DNA of 43,073 nt from positions 1 through 43,073 of the forward strand of contig DATKZS010000229.1 of NCBI GenBank assembly GCA_035527835.1, in the 5' to 3' direction. Shown here piece by piece: positions 4,221 to 42,953 of the stretch. Each line of letters opens with the position of its first letter. The first letter of the stretch is position 1. Under the pieces are notes generated by a model, which saw only the letters and a list, made by a program, of their open reading frames with translations, did no database searches and had not been told where the DNA came from. The stretch is from a bacterium (GTDB lineage: Bacteria; RBG-13-61-14; DATKZS01). The position numbers were made by a program, and so were the translations under genes.

Positions 4221-4243
4221 GCGCCAGTGTGGCGCTTGTCATT
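4221..4243. terminator. Hairpin (GCGCCAgtgTGGCGC) between convergent trkH and ymdB ends
   Basis: Perfect 6-bp stem plus flanking T-rich sequence, between two convergent stop codons. Confidence 0.3.
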
Positions 4244-5024
4244 CCGCGTCCAGCTCGCGGCGGATGGCGGTGATGTGGAGGGCCTTTCCGGTTTTGGGGT
4301 CGCAGGCCACGCAGGCGGCGTTGAGCTCGACCGGCCCGGCGGCGGTCTCCAAGCGGCGGGGCATTCCGGTGAGGAAGCGGTCGAGCACGGGCTGGATTTT
4401 GAAGCCGAGCACGGAGTCGCGCGGCCCGGTCATTCCGACGTCTGACATGTAGGCGGTGCCATGAGGCAGGATTTTGGGGTCGGCGGTGGTGACGTGGGTA
4501 TGGGTGCCGATGACGGCGGAGACCTTGCCGTCGAGGTAATAGCCCATGGCCTCTTTTTCGGAGGTGGCCTCGGCGTGGAAGTCCATGATAATGACGCGCA
4601 CGTCGGGGTCAATCTCGGAGAGGACCTGGTCGGCGCCGCGGAAGGGGCAGTCCACCGGCGGCATGTAGACCCTTCCCTCCATGTTGACGACCGCGGCCGG
4701 GCCATGCTCGGTCTCGGCCACGATCCATCCCTTGCCGGGGACGCCCGGGAAAAAATTGGCGGGCCGGAGGAGCCGCTCGCAGTGCTCGATCTCGGAGATG
4801 AACTCCTTGCGGTCCCAGACGTGGTTGCCGGTGGTGAGCACGTCCACGCCGATGCCCACGAGCTGGTCGTAAATCTGGCGGGACATGCCGAAGCCGCCGG
4901 CGGCGTTCTCGGCGTTGACCACCACCAGGTGGGCCTCGAATTCCTCGATCAGGCCGGGCAGGAGGCGGGTGACGGCCCTCCGGCCCGGCCGGCCGATGAT
5001 GTCGCCGATTAAGAGGATGTTCAA
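4239..5024 (-). CDS. ymdB: YmdB-family metallophosphoesterase (2',3'-cyclic-nucleotide phosphodiesterase, TIGR00282-like)
   Basis: MNILLIGDIIGRPGR N-terminus and DxH/GNH metallophosphatase motifs, 261 aa. Encoded immediately downstream of rny, as in Firmicutes. Confidence 0.8.
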   Translation of the reverse strand: MNILLIGDIIGRPGRRAVTRLLPGLIEEFEAHLVVVNAENAAGGFGMSRQIYDQLVGIGVDVLTTGNHVWDRKEFISEIEHCERLLRPANFFPGVPGKGWIVAETEHGPAAVVNMEGRVYMPPVDCPFRGADQVLSEIDPDVRVIIMDFHAEATSEKEAMGYYLDGKVSAVIGTHTHVTTADPKILPHGTAYMSDVGMTGPRDSVLGFKIQPVLDRFLTGMPRRLETAAGPVELNAACVACDPKTGKALHITAIRRELDAE

Positions 5025-5096
5025 GCAACCAGCCTTTCCTCGGGGGCAAGCCCGGGGGAGAAGCGTAAAGTATTCAGTATCCGGCCAAGAAATTTT

Positions 5097-5171
5097 TTAA
5101 CAAGGATATTCAGGATGTTCAGGATCAAGAAAACCAGGGATCATCCTGGTAATCCTGAATATCCTTGTTAA
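5097..5171. repeat. Long imperfect hairpin, 'caggat' tandem-unit class (H1); homologous to the copy at 41369-41428
   Basis: Left arm aacaaggatattcaggatgttcaggat pairs with the reverse complement of atcctggtaatcctgaatatccttgtt. The flank gaaaagattattaacaagg is also shared with the 41357-41375 copy. Confidence 0.6.
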
Positions 5172-5224
5172 TAATCTTTTCATTTTATATTATTATCCTG
5201 GTGATAAAACCAGTTCTAGATTTA

Positions 5225-5273: not shown

Positions 5274-6830
5274 CTACTTTGCGATCTCGACGGCCCGGGT
5301 CTCGCGGATGACCATCACCCTGATCTGCCCGGGATAGGTCAGCTCCTCCTCGATTTTTTTGGCGATGTCCTTGGACAGGATCAGGGCCTGTTCATCGTTG
5401 ATTTTGTCGCTTTCCACCAGGACCCTGATCTCGCGCCCGGCCTGGATGGCGTAGCTCTTCTCGATGCCCTTGAACGAGTTGGCGATCTTTTCCAGGTCTT
5501 CGAGGCGCTTGACGTAGGTTTCCAGCATCTCGCGGCGGGCGCCGGGCCGGGCGCCGGAGAGGGCGTCGGCGGCCTGGATCAGGTTGCCGAGGAGGCTGCC
5601 GGGGTCGTCGTTATGGTGTCCGCCGATGGCCTCGACCACGGCGGGCGACTCGCCGTACTTTTTGGCGAGCTCGGCCCCGATCTGGGCGTGCGGCCCCTCG
5701 ACCTCGTGGTCCACGGCCTTGCCGATGTCGTGGAGCAGCCCGGCGCGCTTGGCCTTCTTCACGTTGATCCCGAGCTCGGAGGCCATGATGCCGCAGAGGA
5801 AGGCGACCTCCATGGCGTGCCGGTACTGGTTCTGTCCGTAGCTGGTGCGGTATTTGAGGCGTCCGATGAGCTTGATGATCTCGGGATTGATGCCGTGGAC
5901 CCCGAGGTCAAAGGTTGCCTGCTGCCCGGCCTCGCGGATGCCGTCCATCACTTCCTTCTCGGCCTTGTTCACGATCTCCTCGATGCGGGCGGGATGGATC
6001 CGGCCGTCCTGGATGAGTCTCTCGAGGGAGAGCCTCGCGATCTCGCGCTGGACCGCGTTGAAGCTGGAGAGCACCACTGCCTCCGGGGTGTCGTCCACGA
6101 TCAGGTCCACGCCGGTAAGGGCCTCGAGGGCCCGGATGTTGCGTCCCTCGCGGCCGATGATCCGGCCCTTCATCTCGTCGTTGGGCAGGGCCACCACCGT
6201 GACCGTGCGCTCGGTCACGTAGTCGCCGGCGTAGCGGTCAATGGCCAGGCCCAGGATCTCCTTGGCTTTCTTCTCGGCCTCCTCCCGGGCCTCCTCCTCG
6301 ATCTGCTTGATCTTCTTGGCGGCCTCGTGCTTGGCTTCCTCGGTCAGGTCGTCCATCAATTGCTTCTTGGCCTCGGTCGCGGTCATGCCGGCGATGCGCT
6401 CCAGCTCTTTCTGGGCGTCGCCCAGCAGTTTCTGGTATTTCTCCTCGCGGTTCTTGAGCTCCTGCTCCTGCGCTTGCAGCTTGCGGACCCGGTCCTGGTT
6501 GTCCATCTCCTTGCGGTCGAGAAACTCGATCTTCTTGTCGAGGGTCTCCTCGCGATGGAGGAGCCTTTGCTGCATGGCATTCTGCTCCTCCTTCACTTTC
6601 TTGGAATCGCGCTCGAACTCCTGCTTGGCCTGGTAGGCGTAATCCTTGGCCAGGAGCTCGGCCTCCTTGAGGATGCGCTTCCTTTCCGCTTCGGCCTCGT
6701 TCTTGATCTTCTCGGCCTCTTCCTGGGACGCCAGCAGGCGCTTGGCCCCGACCTTGGTCAGGACGAAATAGATGCCGCCCGCGCCCATCCCCAACCCGAT
6801 GACGAACAGTATGATCGTTAAAGCTGTCAC
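5274..6830 (-). CDS. rny: Ribonuclease Y (N-terminal TM anchor, coiled coil, KH and HD domains)
   Basis: 518 aa. N-terminal TM helix, long Glu/Lys coiled coil, KH motif (IGREGRNI) and HD motif (LLHDIGK). Confidence 0.92.
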
Positions 6831-7711: not shown

Positions 7712-8014
7712 GGACATTACATTTAATCGTTCAATCATTTCCGGCAATTCTCGTGACGGCTTGGTCCCGGCCATCCATCATCCCGGCCTTTTTTCTCCGG
7801 CTCTCTTCCCAATTGTCGTCATCCCCCGCCTCTGCCGTGTGGCGGATCACTTTCAAACCCGGTAAAACCAGGTGGGCGCCGTATTACCGTTTCAGGTTCC
7901 TGGGCGAAGCAGTAGGCTCTCCAGGCACACACCGCGGCAAGGGACAGCTCCCTTAGTGAATTTAATGGTTCGAAAAGTCTGCCACCCAATCACGAACAGC
8001 GCAGGGGATGATAC

Positions 8015-8651: not shown

Positions 8652-8715
8652 CTACTATCTGACTATAGACCCGGCGCGCGATCAAGTCAAGACCCAAAAG
8701 CCGCTCACTGACGTT

Positions 8716-8788
8716 GGTGGAGGGGACACTCTTGTCCCCTCACATCGGGCCGACAGGAGTGTCGGCCCCACCTGGTGTCGGCCCCACC
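8716..8788. repeat. REP-like compound palindrome, copy A (GGTGG-GGGGACACTCTTGTCCCC-...-GGCCGACAGGAGTGTCGGCC-CCACC, plus a duplicated right end)
   Basis: Two hairpins with GACA-N4-TGTC cores that are reverse complements of each other, bracketed by GGTGG/CCACC. The same architecture recurs at 12304, 23761, 25006 and 39591. Confidence 0.6.
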
Positions 8789-8834: not shown

Positions 8835-10385
8835 ATGGGGCTGAACGTGGATGCGGTGGTGGTCGGCGCCGGCCTGGGCGGGCTGGCCGCGGCGGCCCGG
8901 CTTGCGCGGCACGGGCTTCGGGTGCTGGTGGCGGATGGGAACCCGCACCCGGGCGGCACGACCTCTTCATTCCAGCGGAGGGGCTTTTGGTTCCCGATGG
9001 GGCCGATGGGGTTCAGCTCGCCGGGCCTGGTGCGCGGGCTGTGGCGGGAGCTCACGGAGGAGGAGGACATCGAGCTGCAACCCATCCGCTACCGGGTCCG
9101 CGCGTTCGGCCTTGACGTGCCCATCTCGCTGCCGCTTGGCGAGCTGGCGCGCGCGCTGGCGGCGGCGGCGCCGGCGGAGGCGGCGGGGGTCGGGCGGTTT
9201 TTCGCGGAGATCGGGGAAGTGGTTGGCGCGCTCGGCGGCGCGGACGAGGCCCACGCCGGCGTCCTGGAAAGCGCGGCGGCCACGCCCGCCGGAGATTACC
9301 TGGAGTCAGTGGTCAAGGACGGCCGTCTGCGCCGCATCCTGGGGAGCATCGGGACCTCGGAGCCTTACTCGACGCTGGCGCTCTTGGCGGCGATGTGGAA
9401 CCTGGTCGCTAACGAGGGGATCTGGACGCCGCGGGCCGGGATGCGCTCGCTGGGGGAGGGGCTGGCCCGGACGGTGGAAGGGGACGGGACCGGACGGATC
9501 ATCCTGAACAGCGAGGTGGCCGAGATCAGGGTGAACCGCGGCAAGGTGAGCGGCGTGGCCCTGGCGGGCGGCGAGGTCATCAACGCGCCGGTGGTGATTT
9601 CCAATTCCGATTTCCGGGCGACGTTCCTTAAGCTGCTCGACACGGAGACGGTGCCGCCGGAGTGGATCGAGGCCGTGTTCAACGCGCGACTCACCAGCTC
9701 CAACCTGCAGGTGAGCCTGGGCCTCGACGCCGGCGTGGCTGACCTCTCCGCCTTCCGCGAGGCCCAGCGGATCATTTACCGGCGCGCGGACGCCGCGACG
9801 GAGATTGCTCCGGCCGGCCCGGACTGGCGGGCCCTGGAGATTGCCCCCGAGTCCCTGGCGGCCCAGGAGCTGGAGCTGTCGTTATGGAGCGCATGCGAGG
9901 GATCGGCGGCGCCGGCGGGCCATGCCGCGCTGGTGATCCGGACGGAGGCGGAGTATTCTCATTTCGCGCGGTATCGTCCGGCTCGGGGCAAGCGGCTCGG
10001 GCCTTATCATGAGTACAAGGTGCGGCTGGCGCGGGCGCTCACGCGGGAGGCGTCGCGGGTCGTGCCCGGCCTCATCGAGGCGATCGTGGTGATGGACGTG
10101 GCGACGCCACTGACGTTCGAGGAGCGGGGCGGCCGGAGCGGCGGCGCGGTTGCGGGCTGGTCGTGGGATTTCGAGGACAGCCGGGACGCGCGGCCGCGCG
10201 AGCTGATCCGGACGCCGGTGCGGGGCCTGTACATGGCGGGCTGCCAGGCGTTCTCGTCCCTGGTCATGGGCGGAGTGCCCACGGCCCTGGTCAGCGGCAA
10301 GCTCGCGGCCGAGTCCGCGCTGCGCGGAGACGGGCCGGTTGCGGAAGTGACGATCCCGGGAGCCGGTTCCGACAAATGGGAGTAA
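8835..10385 (+). CDS. Phytoene desaturase (CrtI)-family NAD(P)/FAD-dependent oxidoreductase
   Basis: N-terminal dinucleotide-binding motif DAVVVGAGLGGLAAAARLARHGLRVLVAD. 516 aa, CrtI/amine-oxidase-like length and C-terminal GG..MAG motif. Confidence 0.7.
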   Translation: MGLNVDAVVVGAGLGGLAAAARLARHGLRVLVADGNPHPGGTTSSFQRRGFWFPMGPMGFSSPGLVRGLWRELTEEEDIELQPIRYRVRAFGLDVPISLPLGELARALAAAAPAEAAGVGRFFAEIGEVVGALGGADEAHAGVLESAAATPAGDYLESVVKDGRLRRILGSIGTSEPYSTLALLAAMWNLVANEGIWTPRAGMRSLGEGLARTVEGDGTGRIILNSEVAEIRVNRGKVSGVALAGGEVINAPVVISNSDFRATFLKLLDTETVPPEWIEAVFNARLTSSNLQVSLGLDAGVADLSAFREAQRIIYRRADAATEIAPAGPDWRALEIAPESLAAQELELSLWSACEGSAAPAGHAALVIRTEAEYSHFARYRPARGKRLGPYHEYKVRLARALTREASRVVPGLIEAIVVMDVATPLTFEERGGRSGGAVAGWSWDFEDSRDARPRELIRTPVRGLYMAGCQAFSSLVMGGVPTALVSGKLAAESALRGDGPVAEVTIPGAGSDKWE

Positions 10386-10408
10386 ATCTTGTCCACAATA
10401 TGCACAAG

Positions 10409-10527
10409 AAAAACGCCAAGGCGCCAAGAACGCCAAGGACCGCCAAAAATGCTTGAATCGCCCGGAAGACGGATGGATATGGTATTAACAACATAATCCT
10501 TGGCGTTCTTGGCGCCTTGGCGTTTTT
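10409..10527. repeat. Long hairpin with perfect 31-bp inverted arms built from tandem 'gccaag' units (H2), ~57-nt loop
   Basis: aaaaacgccaaggcgccaagaacgccaagga ... tccttggcgttcttggcgccttggcgttttt are exact reverse complements. Intergenic between the CrtI-like gene and pepF. Confidence 0.7.
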
Positions 10528-10557
10528 CCGGTCTGCTTAGTTAGGAGCAAAAAGAGA

Positions 10558-12303: not shown

Positions 12304-12416
12304 GTGGAGCCCGACACTCTTGTCGGGCGGCGTCGCCAAGGTCGAGGGGCGCGGGACAAGAGTGTCCCGCCCACCATAAGGTTGGCACTTGCGGGGACAG
12401 GAGTGTCCCCGCCACC
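12304..12416. repeat. REP-like compound palindrome, copy B (full unit 12304-12373 plus extra half-unit 12390-12416)
   Basis: ggtggagcccGACACTCTTGTCgggc...gcgGGACAAGAGTGTCCcgcccacc, then ggggacaggagtgtccccgccacc. Ends at the GH51 start codon. Confidence 0.6.
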
Positions 12417-23700: not shown

Positions 23701-23760
23701 TCGAGCGCCCCCCGCAATATTTCCGCTGCCAGTTCCTTCTCCTGCGAGGCGGCACCGAGT

Positions 23761-23814
23761 GGTGGGCGGGACACTCCTGTCCCGCGCCCGCCCGACAAGA
23801 GTGTCGGGCCCACC
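23761..23814. repeat. REP-like compound palindrome, copy C
   Basis: ggtgggcGGGACACTCCTGTCCCgcgcccgcCCGACAAGAGTGTCGGGcccacc, in the divergent intergenic region. Confidence 0.6.
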
Positions 23815-24912: not shown

Positions 24913-25005
24913 CCTTAATTTTTTCTCTCCCATCCTCGATTCCCGCCCGGTCCCGGGCGAGCCGAACTTATTGATCACTGTAAAAGTAAAGTCGTGCTTG
25001 AGACT

Positions 25006-25062
25006 GGTGGAGGGGACACTCCTGTCCCCTGCGCTTGGGCCGACGGGAGTGTCGGCCCCACC
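25006..25062. repeat. REP-like compound palindrome, copy D
   Basis: ggtggaGGGGACACTCCTGTCCCCtgcgcttgGGCCGACGGGAGTGTCGGCCccacc, between convergent gene ends. Confidence 0.6.
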
Positions 25063-25097
25063 TCTTGCAGCAACATTATTCTTGCAGTGGAGCGGGG

Positions 25098-26288: not shown

Positions 26289-26352
26289 ACAGAGACACGG
26301 AGACACAGAGATTTCTTTTTTTCCATACTTCCTCCGTGTCTCTGTGTCTCGG
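26289..26352. repeat. Long hairpin, 'cagagaca/cggagaca' tandem-unit class (H4)
   Basis: cacagagacacggagacacagagat ... ctccgtgtctctgtgtctcgg, with a 15-nt T-rich loop. In the divergent intergenic region. Confidence 0.55.
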
Positions 26353-26456: not shown

Positions 26457-27947
26457 ATGAACGAGACCAAGGACAGGCCGGAGGCGGAGGAGGCCGAGGC
26501 GGACCCGCGGGCGGCGGAGCGGGAGGCGTGGATCGAGCGGCTGCGCCTTGACGGCAAGTACCGCATGTTGTTCGAGCTGGAGATCCTGTTGAAGGGCCTG
26601 GACCGCTTCTTCAACGTCGAGAACCTTCCGCTCGCCAACATGCAGCAGGTGATTGCGCTCAATTTCGTGGACGAGCTGGAGATCATCCTGCAGTTCGTGG
26701 ACCGGGTGGTGGAGCTTTCGGGCGTGCTGCTCGACGCCTCGCGGCAGGAGGACTACCAGTTCAAGTATTACATCGAGACCAAGCTCCTGGGCGACTACGA
26801 GCGCTCGCGCTGGCGGGAGGCGGTGCTGGAGCAGGAGAACCCGGAGGCCAGCCTGTTCGTGCTCTACGGGACCTTCTTGAACCTGCGCGAGATCCTGCGC
26901 GGACTCACTCAGCTTAAAGTAGTGCCCTACACCATCTTCTTCAACACCGGCAACCTGATCAGCCGCGAGATGCTGGGCAACCGCTACTTCAACCCGTCCC
27001 GCCCGGTCGAGTTCCGGCCCGAGTTCGACAAGGTCAATAACAAGCGCATCGGAATGATCGTCCGGGCCGTCAAGGACGCCCAGCTCCAGCGCAACGCGTC
27101 CATCGTGGTCCTCGCCTTCAACCGGCTGTTGCAGTACCTGCGCTTCATTGACCCTCGGAGCGAGTCCATCGAGCACCTGAAAAGCTCGCTCCTCTTCTTC
27201 GCCCTCATCCACTCCGAGTCGAAATACCTGATGGAGTTCATGGAAACCAACCTGCCCGACCGGCTCGCGGGCAACCCGGACAAAATGCGCGGGCCCTTCA
27301 CCGAGGCCTGCGACTCGCTCTCCTTCCAGCTCCAGATGGAGCTCAAGAAGATCCACGCCGGCGAGCTCCTCAACCTGGCCAAGCAGAAAAAGCTCGAGAG
27401 CGTGAAGACGGCCGTCGAGAACAGCCACGGTATCCTGATGAACTTCTTCCAGCAGAGCGTGATCCAGATCCTCAAGGTGTTCGAGTCGGGGCTGGCGGGG
27501 GAGGAGATCTTCCCGGTGTTCATCTCGCGCCGGAAGCAGAGCCTGAAGCTCCGGGAGGACCTGGCGGTGTTCCGCTCCATGATGGAGAAATTCGAGGAGA
27601 TCACCGAGACCACGGAGGCCGGGATGCACCTGGACACGTATCTGAAATACCTGGTCCTGCAGAAGGGCTTCGTGGCCAGGATGCGGCGCGGCACCATGCC
27701 GCTGATGCGCTACCACGACCTGGTGGAGTTCGAGAAGTACCTGAAGTTCGTCGAGGGCCTGGGCCTCGACGACCTGCATATCATGGACAAGCTCGACAAG
27801 TTCAAGATGGAATCCAAGTTCTTCAAGATCCTGGTCGAGACCACCTTAGGCCACATTGACAACCGCTCCGAGCTGCAGGGAGAGCCGCTGGACAAGGCCA
27901 GGGTGGAGCGCAGGCTGAAGCGGTTCGTGGTGGAGTACCTGAAATAG
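26457..27947 (+). CDS. Hypothetical all-alpha protein, 496 aa, no recognised domain
   Basis: Real-protein amino-acid composition (K/E/F/L/N/Y-rich), unlike the antisense frame. Acidic N-terminus. GCGGCGGCAT upstream of the ATG. Confidence 0.6.
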   Translation: MNETKDRPEAEEAEADPRAAEREAWIERLRLDGKYRMLFELEILLKGLDRFFNVENLPLANMQQVIALNFVDELEIILQFVDRVVELSGVLLDASRQEDYQFKYYIETKLLGDYERSRWREAVLEQENPEASLFVLYGTFLNLREILRGLTQLKVVPYTIFFNTGNLISREMLGNRYFNPSRPVEFRPEFDKVNNKRIGMIVRAVKDAQLQRNASIVVLAFNRLLQYLRFIDPRSESIEHLKSSLLFFALIHSESKYLMEFMETNLPDRLAGNPDKMRGPFTEACDSLSFQLQMELKKIHAGELLNLAKQKKLESVKTAVENSHGILMNFFQQSVIQILKVFESGLAGEEIFPVFISRRKQSLKLREDLAVFRSMMEKFEEITETTEAGMHLDTYLKYLVLQKGFVARMRRGTMPLMRYHDLVEFEKYLKFVEGLGLDDLHIMDKLDKFKMESKFFKILVETTLGHIDNRSELQGEPLDKARVERRLKRFVVEYLK

Positions 27948-28005
27948 AAGCTAGAATATAGAAGAAGAGGCCGCGGCGCTTCAATTCTATATTCTATCTT
28001 CTGGA
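27947..28005. repeat. Imperfect hairpin of 'aatataga' units (H5) between the unknown gene and hemL
   Basis: gaagctagaatatagaagaag ... cttcaattctatattctatcttc, plus an extra gattctatattc copy. Confidence 0.4.
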
Positions 28006-28033
28006 TTCTATATTCTTTTTGAAGGAGTTCGCG

Positions 28034-29332: not shown

Positions 29333-29459
29333 GAACCGCCAAGACGCCAAGGCCGCCAAGAAAAAATAGATAAAAATATGGAAGGACGGAAACGCAACTC
29401 CGTCCTTCTTTATTAAATCCAATAAATTCTTTCTTGGCGGCCTTGGCGTCTTGGCGGTT
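29333..29459. repeat. Long hairpin with perfect 30-bp inverted arms of tandem 'gccaag' units (H6), with a nested small hairpin in the loop
   Basis: aaccgccaagacgccaaggccgccaagaaa ... tttcttggcggccttggcgtcttggcggtt are exact reverse complements. Loop contains gaaggacggaaacgcaactccgtccttc. Sits between the convergent hemL and galT ends. First 19 nt are identical to H10. Confidence 0.7.
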
Positions 29460-39105: not shown

Positions 39106-39118
39106 GGAATTATTTTTG

Positions 39119-39198
39119 CACGCAAAGGCGCAAAGACCGCAAAGAATTGAAAAATTTTTATTCTAAATTTCTGCTTTGCGGTCTTTGCGCCTTTGCGA
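39119..39198. repeat. Long hairpin of tandem 'cgcaaag' units (H7), a sequence variant of the gccaag class
   Basis: cgcaaaggcgcaaagaccgcaaagaa ... ttctgctttgcggtctttgcgcctttgcg. Sits between the convergent ends of the 37513 gene and the fmdB-like gene. Confidence 0.65.
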
Positions 39199-39219
39199 GA
39201 AATAAAATCTCCCATCCTC

Positions 39220-39590: not shown

Positions 39591-39667
39591 CGGTAGGACA
39601 GACATTCTTGTCTGTCCGGCGGTAGACAGGCAAGAATGTCGGGACAGACAAGAATGTCTGTCCTACC
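39591..39667. repeat. REP-like compound palindrome, copy E (AT-richer variant: three GACA-N-TGTC cores, GGTAG/CTACC brackets)
   Basis: ggtagGACAGACATTCTTGTCTGTCcggcggtagACAGGCAAGAATGTCGGGACAGACAAGAATGTCTGTCctacc. Confidence 0.55.
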
Positions 39668-39677
39668 CCGCCGGTCA

Positions 39678-40340
39678 TCATTTATTTTTAAGCAGCGCCC
39701 GATGCACCACGGCGTTCACGGCGAGGGCCACGGCGAGCAGGATGACGGCCAGGACGGCGGAGCGGGCGAACTCGCCCTTTGACGTTTCCAGGGCGATGGC
39801 GGTGGTGATGGTGCGGGTGTAGCCCCGGATGTTGCCGCCGAGCATGATCACGCTGCCGACCTCCGAGATCACCCGCCCGAACCCGGCGGCCGTCGCGCCC
39901 AGGATGCCGGTCCTGGCCTCCTTGAGCACGGCCAGGTCCGCCTGCCAGTGCCCGGCCCCCAGCGTCAGCGCCGTCGCGCGCACCCTTCTGTCCACCCCGT
40001 CCACCGCCGCGTAGGTCATGGCGGTGATGATGGGCAAGGCCAGGATCACCTGCCCGATGATGACGGCGGTGGGCGTAAACAGCAGTCCGAGCCCGCCCAG
40101 CACCCCGCTCCGGCCTACGATGGAATAGACCAGCAGCCCGATGACCACGGTGGGCAGGCTGAGCATCGTGTTCATCAGGGTCACCAGGTGCCGCTTGCCG
40201 GCGAACTCGCGCGCCGACACCGCGAGTCCCGCCGGCACGGCCAGCAGCGCCGCCACGAAGGTCGCGATCAGCGAGATGCGGAACGACAGTCCCGCGATCT
40301 GCCAGACCTCGGGGTCGAATATCATCCTGAGCTCGGACAT
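39678..40340 (-). CDS. tupB: Tungstate/molybdate-type ABC transporter permease (TupB-like)
   Basis: 220-aa, 5-6 TM permease with an ABC EAA-like loop. Immediately downstream of the TupA-like binding protein. Confidence 0.7.
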   Translation of the reverse strand: MSELRMIFDPEVWQIAGLSFRISLIATFVAALLAVPAGLAVSAREFAGKRHLVTLMNTMLSLPTVVIGLLVYSIVGRSGVLGGLGLLFTPTAVIIGQVILALPIITAMTYAAVDGVDRRVRATALTLGAGHWQADLAVLKEARTGILGATAAGFGRVISEVGSVIMLGGNIRGYTRTITTAIALETSKGEFARSAVLAVILLAVALAVNAVVHRALLKNK

Positions 40341-40401: not shown

Positions 40402-41232
40402 TTATTTCTCCATGGCCGGTATGGCGGCGGGATGGAACAGGACCTGGCCCTCGGCCTGGAACGACCCGATCCTGGCCTGGCCCTCCGGGCTCGTGAGCCA
40501 CGCGATCAGGAGCATGGCGTCCATGTAGTTCGCGTCCGGATACCGCGCCGGGTTGGTCGCGATCATGGCATAAGGGTTGTCCAGGGCCGGGTCGTTTTCG
40601 CAAACGATGTCCAGGTCCAGGGTCTTTTTCAGCGCCAGGTACGTGCCGCGGTCGGAAAGGGTGTAGGCCTTCTTCTCGTGGGCCATGCGTAAAGCTTCCT
40701 CCATGCCCTGGCCGATCTCGAGGTAGCGGTCCGCCGCCGGCTTGCCATTGACCAGCGGCCAAAGCTGCAACTCCTTCTTGTTCGTGCCCGAGTCGTCGCC
40801 GCGCGAGATGAACACCGCGTTCTTATTGTCCGTGAGCAGCCCAAGCGCGTCCTTGAGCGACGCCGCGCTTTTGATCCCGGCCGGGTCGGAAGGGGGGCCC
40901 ACGATCACGAAGTCGTTCTTCATGAACGGCCGCCGGTTCACCCCGAACCCCGCATCCACGAACTTCATCTCCGCCTCCGGCGCGTGCACCATCACCACGT
41001 CAACGTCGCCGTTCTCCGCGAGCTTCAGCGCCTTGCCCGTGCCCACCGCGATCACCTGCACCTCGATCCCGTACTCCTTCTCGAAAACCGGCAGCAGGTA
41101 ATCGAGCAGGCCCGAGCTCTGGGTGCTGGTCGTGGTCGCCATCTTCAGCACCCGCTTCCCCTTGGCCGCCGCATGGAGCGCGAACGCCATGAAGAGACAT
41201 ACCATTGCCGCGAGAACTGTTTTCCGGTTCAT
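40402..41232 (-). CDS. tupA: Tungstate ABC transporter substrate-binding protein (TupA/WtpA-like)
   Basis: Signal peptide. KMATTTSTQSSGLLDYL matches the TupA anion-binding TTTST..SGL signature. 276 aa. Confidence 0.8.
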   Translation of the reverse strand: MNRKTVLAAMVCLFMAFALHAAAKGKRVLKMATTTSTQSSGLLDYLLPVFEKEYGIEVQVIAVGTGKALKLAENGDVDVVMVHAPEAEMKFVDAGFGVNRRPFMKNDFVIVGPPSDPAGIKSAASLKDALGLLTDNKNAVFISRGDDSGTNKKELQLWPLVNGKPAADRYLEIGQGMEEALRMAHEKKAYTLSDRGTYLALKKTLDLDIVCENDPALDNPYAMIATNPARYPDANYMDAMLLIAWLTSPEGQARIGSFQAEGQVLFHPAAIPAMEK

Positions 41233-41278
41233 GCCTGCTCCTTTCTCCCTCCGAGTTTTATGGGGCGTTTTTATTAGC

Positions 41279-41507
41279 CGCAGATGAACGCGGATGAACG
41301 CAGATAAGAGTTGATTATTAGAACCGGTTTCATAACCAGGACAAACATCTCGAATGAAAAGATTATTAACCAGGATATTCGGGATTTTCAGGATGATCCC
41401 CGGTTTTTTAATCCTGAAGATCCTTGTTAAAAAATTCTTGTCTGGTTTATGAAACCGCCTCTAATAATATTTTTATTTATCTGCGTTCATCCGCGTTCAT
41501 CTGCGGC
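41279..41507. mobile_element. MITE-like composite: ~60-bp imperfect terminal inverted repeats (outer 27 bp built from 'gatgaacgc' units) flanking an AT-rich core that contains hairpin H9
   Basis: ccgcagatgaacgcggatgaacgcagataagagttgattattagaaccggtttcataacc pairs with the reverse complement of ggtttatgaaaccgcctctaataatatttttatttatctgcgttcatccgcgttcatctgcgg. Lies 47 bp upstream of the tupA start. Confidence 0.55.
41369..41428. repeat. Hairpin H9 ('caggat' class), a degraded homologue of H1 at 5097-5171
   Basis: accaggatattcgggattttcaggat ... atcctgaagatccttgtt. The left flank atgaaaagattattaaccaggatattcgggat is ~90% identical to the H1 flank. Confidence 0.5.
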
Positions 41508-41530
41508 AAAAAAATCCCCCTCTCTCAAAC

Positions 41531-41580
41531 AAAAAAGCCCGTCCCGCGTGTCAACGGGACGGGCCGGCCGTCCTTTTTTC
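41531..41580. terminator. Bidirectional intrinsic terminator (A6-GCCCGTCCCG-loop-CGGGACGGGC-...T6)
   Basis: 10-bp GC stem with an A-run upstream and a T-run downstream. Confidence 0.5.
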
Positions 41581-42021
41581 TCCTTTCCAAGCGCGGGGGG
41601 TCGCGAGGTTTCCCTCACGGCCGAATAGTCGCGTTCCCTGGCCTTGTCTCGGGCGGTAGGCGTGAGCGACTCGGAGATGCTCGGAGTATAACGGAATGCC
41701 CGCCCCAAAGCAAACCCGTACGCCCGGCAAGGGTATCGGGCCTGCCGTCATTGCCCCGCCGCTCCCCTGCTCTTTACCTTTTTACCCAAGGTCCGGTGGC
41801 GCGGGCCTATAAAAAGAGCCGCGTCGCTCTTTAATTATTCAATAACGGAAGGATTGGGCTGCCGCGAGTGGGACGCAATATTGGGAACGGCCCTTGTTCC
41901 TCTGAAAAGATCAAGGATTTGGCAAGGATAGCTGCCGGGGCGATGCCGGCGACGGATTGGCACTATGTTTGCTACATAACAAAACCATAATTTACTAAAT
42001 TAAACGCCCAAGGGAAACTCC

Positions 42022-42642: not shown

Positions 42643-42752
42643 TCCTAAACTTGAATTACAAAAAAACGCGCCCGCAATGACCCGGCCCCGACCTCGGCCG
42701 GGTCATTCATTTTTATAAATTGACTAAGTGCTGTCCAAAATAAACGGACCGG

Positions 42753-42953
42753 AGAACCGCCAAGACGCCAAGAGCGCCAAGGATTATTTTTTAACAAGAT
42801 TTTAAGAGGGCTTGGGTGCGAATGTTTCTTGCTTGGCGCTCCCGTCGGCCGGTTCGCCAAGCCGGTTGGGGCCAACGCTCCGGAGCTGTTCTTTGCCGGG
42901 CCGCCAATAAACATCAGGTTTTACTTGGCGGTCCTTGGCGCTCTTGGCGTCTC
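42753..42953. repeat. Long hairpin of tandem 'gccaag' units (H10) with ~137-nt loop; left arm shares 19 identical nt with H6
   Basis: gagaaccgccaagacgccaagagcgccaaggat ... acttggcggtccttggcgctcttggcgtctc. The loop carries further gccaag-like remnants. Confidence 0.6.

Follow-up and report, generated by a model that had tools for sequence, protein, structure and literature searches.

A TA-flanked MITE nested within a simple hairpin repeat in the riboswitch-controlled leader of a tupAB operon

The DNA stretch analyzed here, referred to throughout as the window (43,073 nt; contig DATKZS010000229.1 of the bacterial assembly GCA_035527835.1), carries on its minus strand the tupAB genes of a tungstate transporter, with a long palindromic block upstream of tupA. 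The block consists of two small repeat elements, one nested within the loop of the other: a miniature inverted-repeat transposable element (MITE) flanked by TA dinucleotides and, surrounding it, a simple hairpin element that we call the outer hairpin. The composite lies in the 5' untranslated region (UTR) of tupA, where it is preceded by a riboswitch terminator and followed by the ribosome-binding site (RBS). The features of the locus are listed below; L138 is a syntenic locus from a relative, described further on.

39678–40340, minus strand: tupB, downstream of tupA
40402–41232, minus strand: tupA, tungstate ABC-transporter substrate-binding protein (PBP_like_2, 144 bits), with its ATG at 41232
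41238–41252, minus strand: ribosome-binding region of tupA, GGAGGGAGAAAGGAG, outside the hairpin (direct sequence reading and alignment with L138)
41270–41307, unstranded: left arm of the outer hairpin, a T-rich flank followed by GCCGCAGATGAACGCGGATGAACGCAGATAA (tandem 10-nt units), with the perfect stem starting at 41277; the same arm is found in L138
41308–41320, unstranded: left remnant of the outer hairpin loop, GAGTTGATTAT, ending in the TA (41319–41320) that flanks the MITE
41321–41461, plus strand: body of the inner MITE, with ends GAACCGGTTTCATAACC ... GGTTTATGAAACCGCCTC and a 17-nt terminal inverted repeat (TIR)
41366–41430, unstranded: core hairpin of the MITE (H9 of an earlier note on this DNA), tandem 9-nt CAGGAT-type units, three in the left arm and two in the right
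41462–41476, unstranded: the right TA (41462–41463) and the right remnant of the outer hairpin loop
41477–41514, unstranded: right arm of the outer hairpin, consisting of TTATCTGCGTTCATCCGCGTTCATCTGCGGC and an A-rich flank (inverted-repeat search and L138)
41526–41565, minus strand: intrinsic terminator of the riboswitch, a 12-bp stem (41565–41536) with nine GC pairs, then TTTTTGTTTG (terminator scan)
41556–41574, minus strand: candidate antiterminator hairpin, sharing CCGUCC with the 5' arm of the terminator (found as a plus-strand match in the terminator scan)
41564–41688, minus strand: P3-lacking aptamer of a molybdenum/tungsten cofactor (Moco/Tuco) riboswitch, in the tupA leader at its 5' end (RF01055)

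The riboswitch was identified by an Rfam covariance-model search (40.8 bits vs. a gathering score of 36), with the full model, positions 1–135, covered. The columns of the model that form the P3 stem are deleted in the window's alignment. A P3-less form of the Moco riboswitch was correlated with tungsten-cofactor genes by Regulski et al. (PMC2408646), and the context seen here, a P3-lacking aptamer and terminator upstream of tungstate-transport genes, fits that correlation. Going by the missing P3, the window's riboswitch fits the Tuco subclass, which is a predicted ligand specificity. The terminator lies directly 3' of the aptamer, and both were kept in three syntenic relatives, where the aptamer scores 42.9 (L138), 65.9 (L141), and 60.7 bits (L142). 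The hairpin at 41556–41574 can be read as a putative antiterminator that would compete with the terminator. The earlier note, made from the sequence letters, had placed a bidirectional terminator at 41531–41580; a hairpin does exist there, but it belongs to the riboswitch terminator together with the candidate antiterminator.

Read along the mRNA, the order is aptamer, terminator, 11 nt, the composite hairpin of ∼245 nt, 18 nt, GGAGGGAGAAAGGAG, and ATG. Because the riboswitch (41688–41564) lies upstream of the composite, the tupA promoter must be upstream of ∼41690, and the composite is inside the 5' UTR. The promoter region is not its site, and the data do not support the previous proposal that the element carries or displaces the tupA promoter. 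The start given for it earlier (41279) is indeed 47 nt upstream of the tupA ATG, with the base of the stem extending to ∼41270. We conclude that tupAB is under the control of a Tuco-type riboswitch and that the palindromic block is repeat DNA in the leader, neither a promoter element nor a terminator.

The composite (41268–41516) folds as one long hairpin. As RNA of the tupA strand, it reaches −117.2 kcal/mol, compared with −50.0 ± 4.3 kcal/mol for shuffled sequences (z = −15.7; none of the 200 shuffles was as stable), and as DNA it reaches −72.7 kcal/mol (z = −14.5). A search for inverted repeats within 41200–41620 resolved three that are nested: an outer repeat (41270–41307/41477–41514; 38 nt, 95% complementary) that contains a perfect 31-bp stem (41277–41307 with 41477–41507), a middle repeat (41314–41344/41438–41468; 31 nt, 84% complementary), and an inner hairpin (41382–41394/41411–41423; 13 nt, 92% complementary). 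The outer arms are built of the tandem 10-mers CGCAGATGAA / CGCGGATGAA / CGCAGATAA. Taking out the MITE and one TA leaves an outer hairpin loop of ...GATTAT-TA-ATAATC..., a short palindrome in whose center the MITE sits. The block had previously been described as a ∼230-bp MITE with 60-bp TIRs. It is MITE-like, as claimed, but it is not a single element: the outer 31–38 nt of the supposed TIR are the simple hairpin, and the next ∼25 nt are the TIR of the MITE plus the remnant of the palindromic loop, leaving the arms of two elements end to end. The sole Rfam match on the element, to MIR8562 (RF04128), was rejected at 63.9 bits vs. a gathering score of 211; the match is to a generic long AT-rich hairpin. 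Two separate assemblies of the same strain break within the composite, one (L002) ending at window position 41490 and the other (L003) at 41298. Repeats of this kind fragment metagenome assemblies and are therefore relevant to the assembly of metagenome-assembled genomes (MAGs).

A search for homologs of TupA yielded three syntenic loci, with a divergent response-regulator gene, an RF01055 match, tupA, and tupB. Three further homologs were left out, two as non-syntenic and without the riboswitch (L139 and L144) and one with no upstream sequence (L143). The interval between terminator and RBS differs among the loci:

L142, TupA identity 69%: nothing between terminator and RBS; aptamer end to ATG, 52 nt
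L141, TupA identity 75%: nothing between terminator and RBS; aptamer end to ATG, 51 nt
L138, TupA identity 86%: outer hairpin only; aptamer end to ATG, 194 nt
Window: outer hairpin and MITE; aptamer end to ATG, 331 nt

In L141 and L142 the T-tract of the terminator adjoins the RBS and ATG, whereas in the lineage of the window and L138, 140–290 nt of repeat DNA separates the expression platform from the RBS. In the 86% relative, L138 from assembly GCA_964432065.1, the insert is composed of GCCGCAGATAAACGCGGATGAACGCAGATAA, a 25-nt loop, and TTATCCGCGTTCATCCGCGTTTATCTGCGGC, and nothing more. The comparison with relatives that the earlier note had proposed thus returned two loci that lack the element, and its suspicion of a nested insertion is borne out by empty, outer-only, and outer-plus-inner states at one site.

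Since these three states occupy the same syntenic site, the most probable history, and one that we hold with good confidence, is that of two successive insertions of non-coding hairpin repeats into the tupAB 5' leader, between the terminator of the Tuco-type riboswitch and the RBS. In the first step, a simple hairpin of ∼75–120 bp would have arrived in the common ancestor of the window and the 86% relative, its arms consisting of three tandem 10-nt units, CCGCA-GATGAACGCN-GATGAACGCN-GATAA. In the second, confined to the window lineage, the AT-rich palindromic loop of this hairpin would have received a MITE of ∼143 bp at a TA. With the riboswitch ON, the composite would then be read through by RNA polymerase, and the resulting leader would carry a nearly continuous RNA duplex of ∼110 bp that ends 18 nt before the Shine-Dalgarno sequence. 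The three leader states (empty, hairpin, and hairpin plus MITE) amount to a natural experiment on how much structured RNA is tolerated between an expression platform and an RBS. A separate indel was noted between tupA and the response-regulator gene, where ∼70 nt upstream of the riboswitch (window ∼41738–41811) are missing from L138 in the alignment.

The inner element defines a new family of TA-flanked MITEs. Scanning of metagenomes for a 22-base pattern of the shared core gave 15 matches at 11 distinct loci, which together with the two copies in the window make a family of 13 loci, in agreement with the earlier description of the inner module as a dispersed repeat. All metagenome matches came from the JGI Ga0307378/79/80 sample series, in which a contig with 99.99% identity to the window is found as well. 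The consensus is 151 nt long with sharp ends (GAACTGGTTTCATAACC ... GGTTATGAAACCGCCTC; 14 of 17 TIR positions complementary); when numbered with its flanks, consensus 1–155 maps to window 41319–41463. Homology ends at identical bases in the intact copies, as expected for dispersed copies with sharp common ends at unrelated loci, and most copies are 94%–99% identical to the consensus. The tupA copy (∼143 bp) has 85% identity to the consensus, and its core hairpin has lost one 10-nt unit of the right arm. The other copy in the window is:

5064–5218, minus strand: second MITE copy (contains H1 of the earlier note), between rny and ymdB; 90% identical to consensus 1–128, with a decayed right end

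The reported homology of H9 and H1 was reproduced: 41319–41407 and 5130–5218 are 84% complementary over 89 nt, which makes the second copy inverted, and the aligned homology spans ∼41319–41450 vs. 5218–5064. Pfam confirmed the flanking genes as YmdB (4239–5024, minus strand) and RNase Y (5274–6830, minus strand). The MITE is small and non-coding; any open reading frame (ORF) of 40 aa or more that overlaps it extends past its end and is without support as a gene.

A TA stands at both ends of all five intact copies (window, at 41319–41320 and 41462–41463; L123/132; L124/128; L130/135; and L133) and at the surviving end of most truncated ones (window 5064–5218, L125/129, L136, and the left end of L131); at the right end that survives in the L137 copy, TC takes its place. 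TIRs with TA on both flanks are the pattern of elements moved by IS630/Tc1-mariner-type transposases. The TA is probably a target-site duplication, and from the TA flanks, the short TIRs, and the size we infer mobilization in trans by a transposase of the IS630/Tc1 type. A second case of presence and absence was found in L130, where a MITE occupies the stop codon (TAG) of a Gfo/Idh/MocA gene and is missing in the relatives L186 and L187 (88% and 73% protein identity, respectively). This copy (4655–4809) starts on the TA of the TAG; removal of the MITE and one TA gives ...GAGTAGTGA, with the same stop codon. The junction has diverged in the relatives, leaving no exactly alignable empty site. 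In L128, another copy (9942–10096) stops 10 nt short of the start codon of an ORF of 1204 aa, which, from its sequence and without a domain search, we take to be mfd.

The outer module is an element in its own right, a simple hairpin. Within the same population, it is found by itself at L132 3831–3908, between two co-directional genes (arms CCGCAGATGAACGCAGATGAACACAGATAA, loop ∼20 nt), and one further outer arm lies at L125 ∼13930, followed by a repeat of a 226-bp family that we describe below.

Several observations weigh against the two-step history or parts of it. The outer arms are ∼94% identical between the window and L138, compared with ∼70%–75% for the flanking leader, and show one compensatory change (GATGAACGC/GCGTTCATC vs. 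GATAAACGC/GCGTTTATC), but the loops that they enclose are unrelated in sequence. Similar arms around unrelated loops imply that the arms are either constrained or homogenized against other copies, or that the hairpin was replaced at this spot; it may have been replaced there, or gained twice, and not inherited once. No precise empty site of the MITE was found in relatives (the L138 loop is unrelated, and the junction at the second locus has diverged), so the TA could be element sequence and not a duplication. No autonomous or full-length element with the MITE termini was found in the ∼161 kb of same-population contigs; matches to GGTTTCATAACC, with one mismatch allowed, in the window and L123–L137 were all MITE ends, with no DDE-transposase partner. 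That these contigs belong to the same genome as the window we infer from shared samples, shared repeat families, and protein naming (the NCBI label 'MAG TPA [bacterium]' on both the window TupA, P0001, and the L130 oxidoreductase, P0121). Finally, one weak sigma-70-like match in the MITE points toward tupA (41391–41362), where 0.6 would be expected by chance.

The composite is most likely neutral or selfish repeat DNA: each of its modules is dispersed, varies in presence among relatives, and is not required for the otherwise conserved riboswitch–tupAB arrangement. It should not terminate transcription, since there is no 3' U-tract on the tupA strand, nor one after the composite on either strand; on either strand, U-rich sequence precedes the composite and A-rich sequence follows it, opposite to the layout of a terminator, and the terminator scan predicted no intrinsic terminator on the minus strand inside 41268–41516. 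Its most likely effect on tupA expression is none; by analogy with the Correia elements of Neisseria, the composite might at most be an RNase III cleavage or mRNA-stability module.

A more committed form of this idea, which we consider unlikely, is that the block has been domesticated as a cis-regulatory module: the leader duplex would serve as a site for RNase III (or RNase Y), cleavage would free the riboswitch or change the half-life of the tupAB mRNA, and the block would have been retained for that function. The composite does lie in a transcribed leader, its perfect 31-bp stem would make an ideal double-stranded RNA substrate, and an RNase Y is encoded in the window. Correia elements are bound and cleaved by RNase III (PMC2649163), and the better conservation of the outer arms, with their compensatory change, would fit this reading. 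Against this, two syntenic relatives function without any element; gene conversion among many genomic copies, or replacement, explains the conservation of the arms equally well; and no covariation was seen in the MITE hairpin among copies, which are too similar.

More doubtful is the notion of the element as a promoter donor, carrying or creating an outward promoter from which tupA would be expressed regardless of the riboswitch, or displacing the native one. Besides the sigma-70-like match, direct reading of the sequence finds TTGTCC-N18-TAATAA across the junction of MITE end and loop, and Correia elements can create promoters at their ends (PMC2649163). However, the count of sigma-70-like sites is close to chance and the consensus may not apply to this host, the riboswitch and terminator are intact and above the Rfam gathering score, which is unexpected if they had long been bypassed, and the native promoter must be located 5' of the aptamer, in sequence that is conserved between the window and L138.

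Very improbable is a single insertion of a pre-assembled composite, that is, one ∼245-bp MITE with 60-bp TIRs. The block does resemble one long TIR pair, as the arms of one element directly adjoin those of the other; yet at this very site L138 carries an outer hairpin that lacks the MITE. In 161 kb of related contigs, 13 occurrences of the MITE have no outer arms around them, the outer hairpin is found apart from this MITE at the L132 site (alone) and the L125 site (one arm), and no second copy of the composite was seen. An ancient structured leader RNA, or a terminator or insulator native to the tupA locus, would account for the very stable fold and the Rfam match, below threshold, to the model of a long-hairpin miRNA precursor, but we give it hardly any credence: the earlier note had associated it with a lack of further copies and the same sequence in orthologous loci, whereas both modules are dispersed repeats, the element is missing from syntenic relatives, and the stem has the U-rich and A-rich flanks described above in place of a 3' U-tract on the sense strand.

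The composite is thus a TA-flanked MITE inside a REP-like hairpin, both known kinds of element. The inner MITE resembles the Correia elements (CREE/NEMIS) in size (∼100–155 bp vs. ∼143 bp), TIRs, TA flanks, and position in leaders and within operons; Correia elements are likewise non-coding, have many intergenic copies, are co-transcribed with their neighbors, and form a long RNA hairpin. It differs in having no sequence similarity to them, in a core that is itself a hairpin of tandem 9-nt units, and in its host, an environmental bacterium. With MITEs derived from IS630/Tc1-mariner elements it shares short TIRs, TA flanks, small size, the lack of an ORF, high identity between copies, and presence/absence polymorphism, but no cognate transposase or full-length element was found in the ∼161 kb of contigs.

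The outer hairpin resembles the repetitive extragenic palindromic sequences and their paired hairpins (REP/REPIN, associated with RAYT or TnpA-REP): these too are short intergenic hairpin repeats in many copies, often within operons, and the outer element is of REPIN-like size and forms a near-perfect hairpin. A given REP/REPIN family is typically restricted to one species or genus. The outer hairpin, in contrast, lacks a GTAG-type tetranucleotide (its terminus is RRCCGCN), has arms of tandem decamers, and has an arm common to several phyla; no RAYT gene or transposase was present near or between outer arms in the loci examined. Nesting of repeats is reportedly also a trait of the SDRs (small dispersed repeats) of heterocystous cyanobacteria, which Elhai et al. 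are said to have described in 2008 as 21–27 nt long and set within other repeats and mini-transposons in the manner of Russian dolls. They resemble our block in this nesting and differ in being confined to one cyanobacterial group and in length (21–27 nt vs. hairpins of 75–250 bp here), a distinction that we draw from description only.

A scan of a genome collection with GATGAACGCNGATGAACGC recovered the outer arm at no fewer than 119 loci, compared with ∼17 expected by chance (our own calculation, from 18 fixed bases and 596 Gb). Among the matches listed were loci from Cyanobacteria, Acidobacteriota, Planctomycetota, Beta- and Gammaproteobacteria, Chloroflexota, Gemmatimonadota, Verrucomicrobiota, and Latescibacterota and from one Methanoperedens MAG; 41 IMG/VR viral contigs also carried the arm. 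Isolates in which it occurs include Dolichospermum, Wenzhouxiangella, and Tychonema. Similarity continues beyond the search pattern: among the matches listed, CCGCN stands immediately 5' of it in 67% and NGAT immediately 3' in 87%, positions −6 and −7 are purines, and positions −8 to −10 are T-rich. This shared sequence implies that the arm, with its terminus RRCCGCN, has a defined end and is more than a slice of a longer tandem array. The arms also have polarity, as an inverted partner (at most four mismatches in 19) within 800 nt lies downstream at 57 sites and upstream at five, again among the matches listed. These matches included 48 delimited elements of the outer type, 58–551 nt long with unrelated interiors; in some, such as L008 and L005, the interior in turn forms a hairpin of other tandem units. 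A possible reading of TTATCTGCG as a DnaA box was dropped, since six of nine positions match and the variants do not track the DnaA box.

In a set of 160 loci, inverted arm pairs 0.7–4 kb apart enclose ordinary genes and no transposases; the enclosed genes include pyrF, a PAPS reductase, a short-chain dehydrogenase/reductase, phage portal and capsid genes, and the neighborhood of a terminase. One IMG/VR contig (L148) carries solo arms of the outer type in inverted orientation 1.7 kb apart (6130–6160 and 7836–7866), enclosing small phage genes and standing just upstream of a terminase-like ORF. A full-text literature search with sequence and peptide strings found no papers containing the arm, sister-unit, or MITE sequences.

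We tentatively raise the possibility, well short of an even chance, that the outer hairpin belongs to an undescribed class of hairpin repeats found across many phyla. Members of such a class may have arms of two to four tandem units of 9–10 nt (here RRCCGCN-GATGAACGCN-GATGAACGCN-GAT), a defined outer terminus, strict arm polarity, and freely variable interiors, and may nest in the apices of other hairpins and replace one another at fixed intergenic slots. If the class is real, the lack of a visible transposase would imply promiscuous mobilization in trans (for example, by an activity targeting hairpins or single-stranded DNA), spread by phages, or host-independent generation of hairpins. A common mechanism behind an arm shared by many phyla would have wider significance for repeat biology.

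In these contigs, hairpin repeats have inserted into the tips of other hairpins more than once. The apex of the MITE core hairpin is interrupted in L127 by a 226-bp repeat, placed between consensus positions 82 and 94, and similar junctions occur in L131 and L125. This repeat has CGCCAAG-type outer arms and a conserved GC-rich interior, its copies are 92%–96% identical to one another, and it has no match in Pfam or Rfam. Its copies are:

Window, 42727–42952
L124, 27–252
L127, 4804–5029
L131, 55–303
L135, 5584–5806

The genome is riddled with hairpins of the tandem-unit class. At least six more intergenic hairpins in the window have arms of tandem 9–10-nt units:

10408–10528
26290–26350
27940–28020
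29334–29459
39106–39212
39592–39667

Their unit types are CGCCAAG, CGCAAAG, GAGACAC, GAATATAGAA, and GGACAGACA, and the sister units also include CAGGAT. Tandems of CGCCAAG were counted six times in 818 kb of multi-phylum loci, compared with ∼0.02 expected (our own calculation from a motif count). A generic survey of the multi-phylum loci for hairpins with periodic arms used thresholds that recovered almost only the family with which the loci had been fetched. The same intergenic slot downstream of tupB holds a hairpin of the GGACAGACA type in the window (39592–39667) and one of the CAGGAT type, homologous to the MITE core, in L138 (6719–6790), which suggests turnover or replacement at fixed sites.

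Three other features of the window were noted. Short GC-rich hairpins, paired as GGGGACACTCNTGTCCCC ... GGCCGACNGGAGTGTCGGCC, are dispersed at 8715–8773, 25005–25063, 12347–12376, and 23760–23789, with 88% identity between copies. A 6S RNA lies at 7819–8010 on the minus strand (RF00013, 96.1 bits). The GC content, 62.6% over the window as a whole, falls below 40% over ∼850 bp in an AT-rich island at 67–919.

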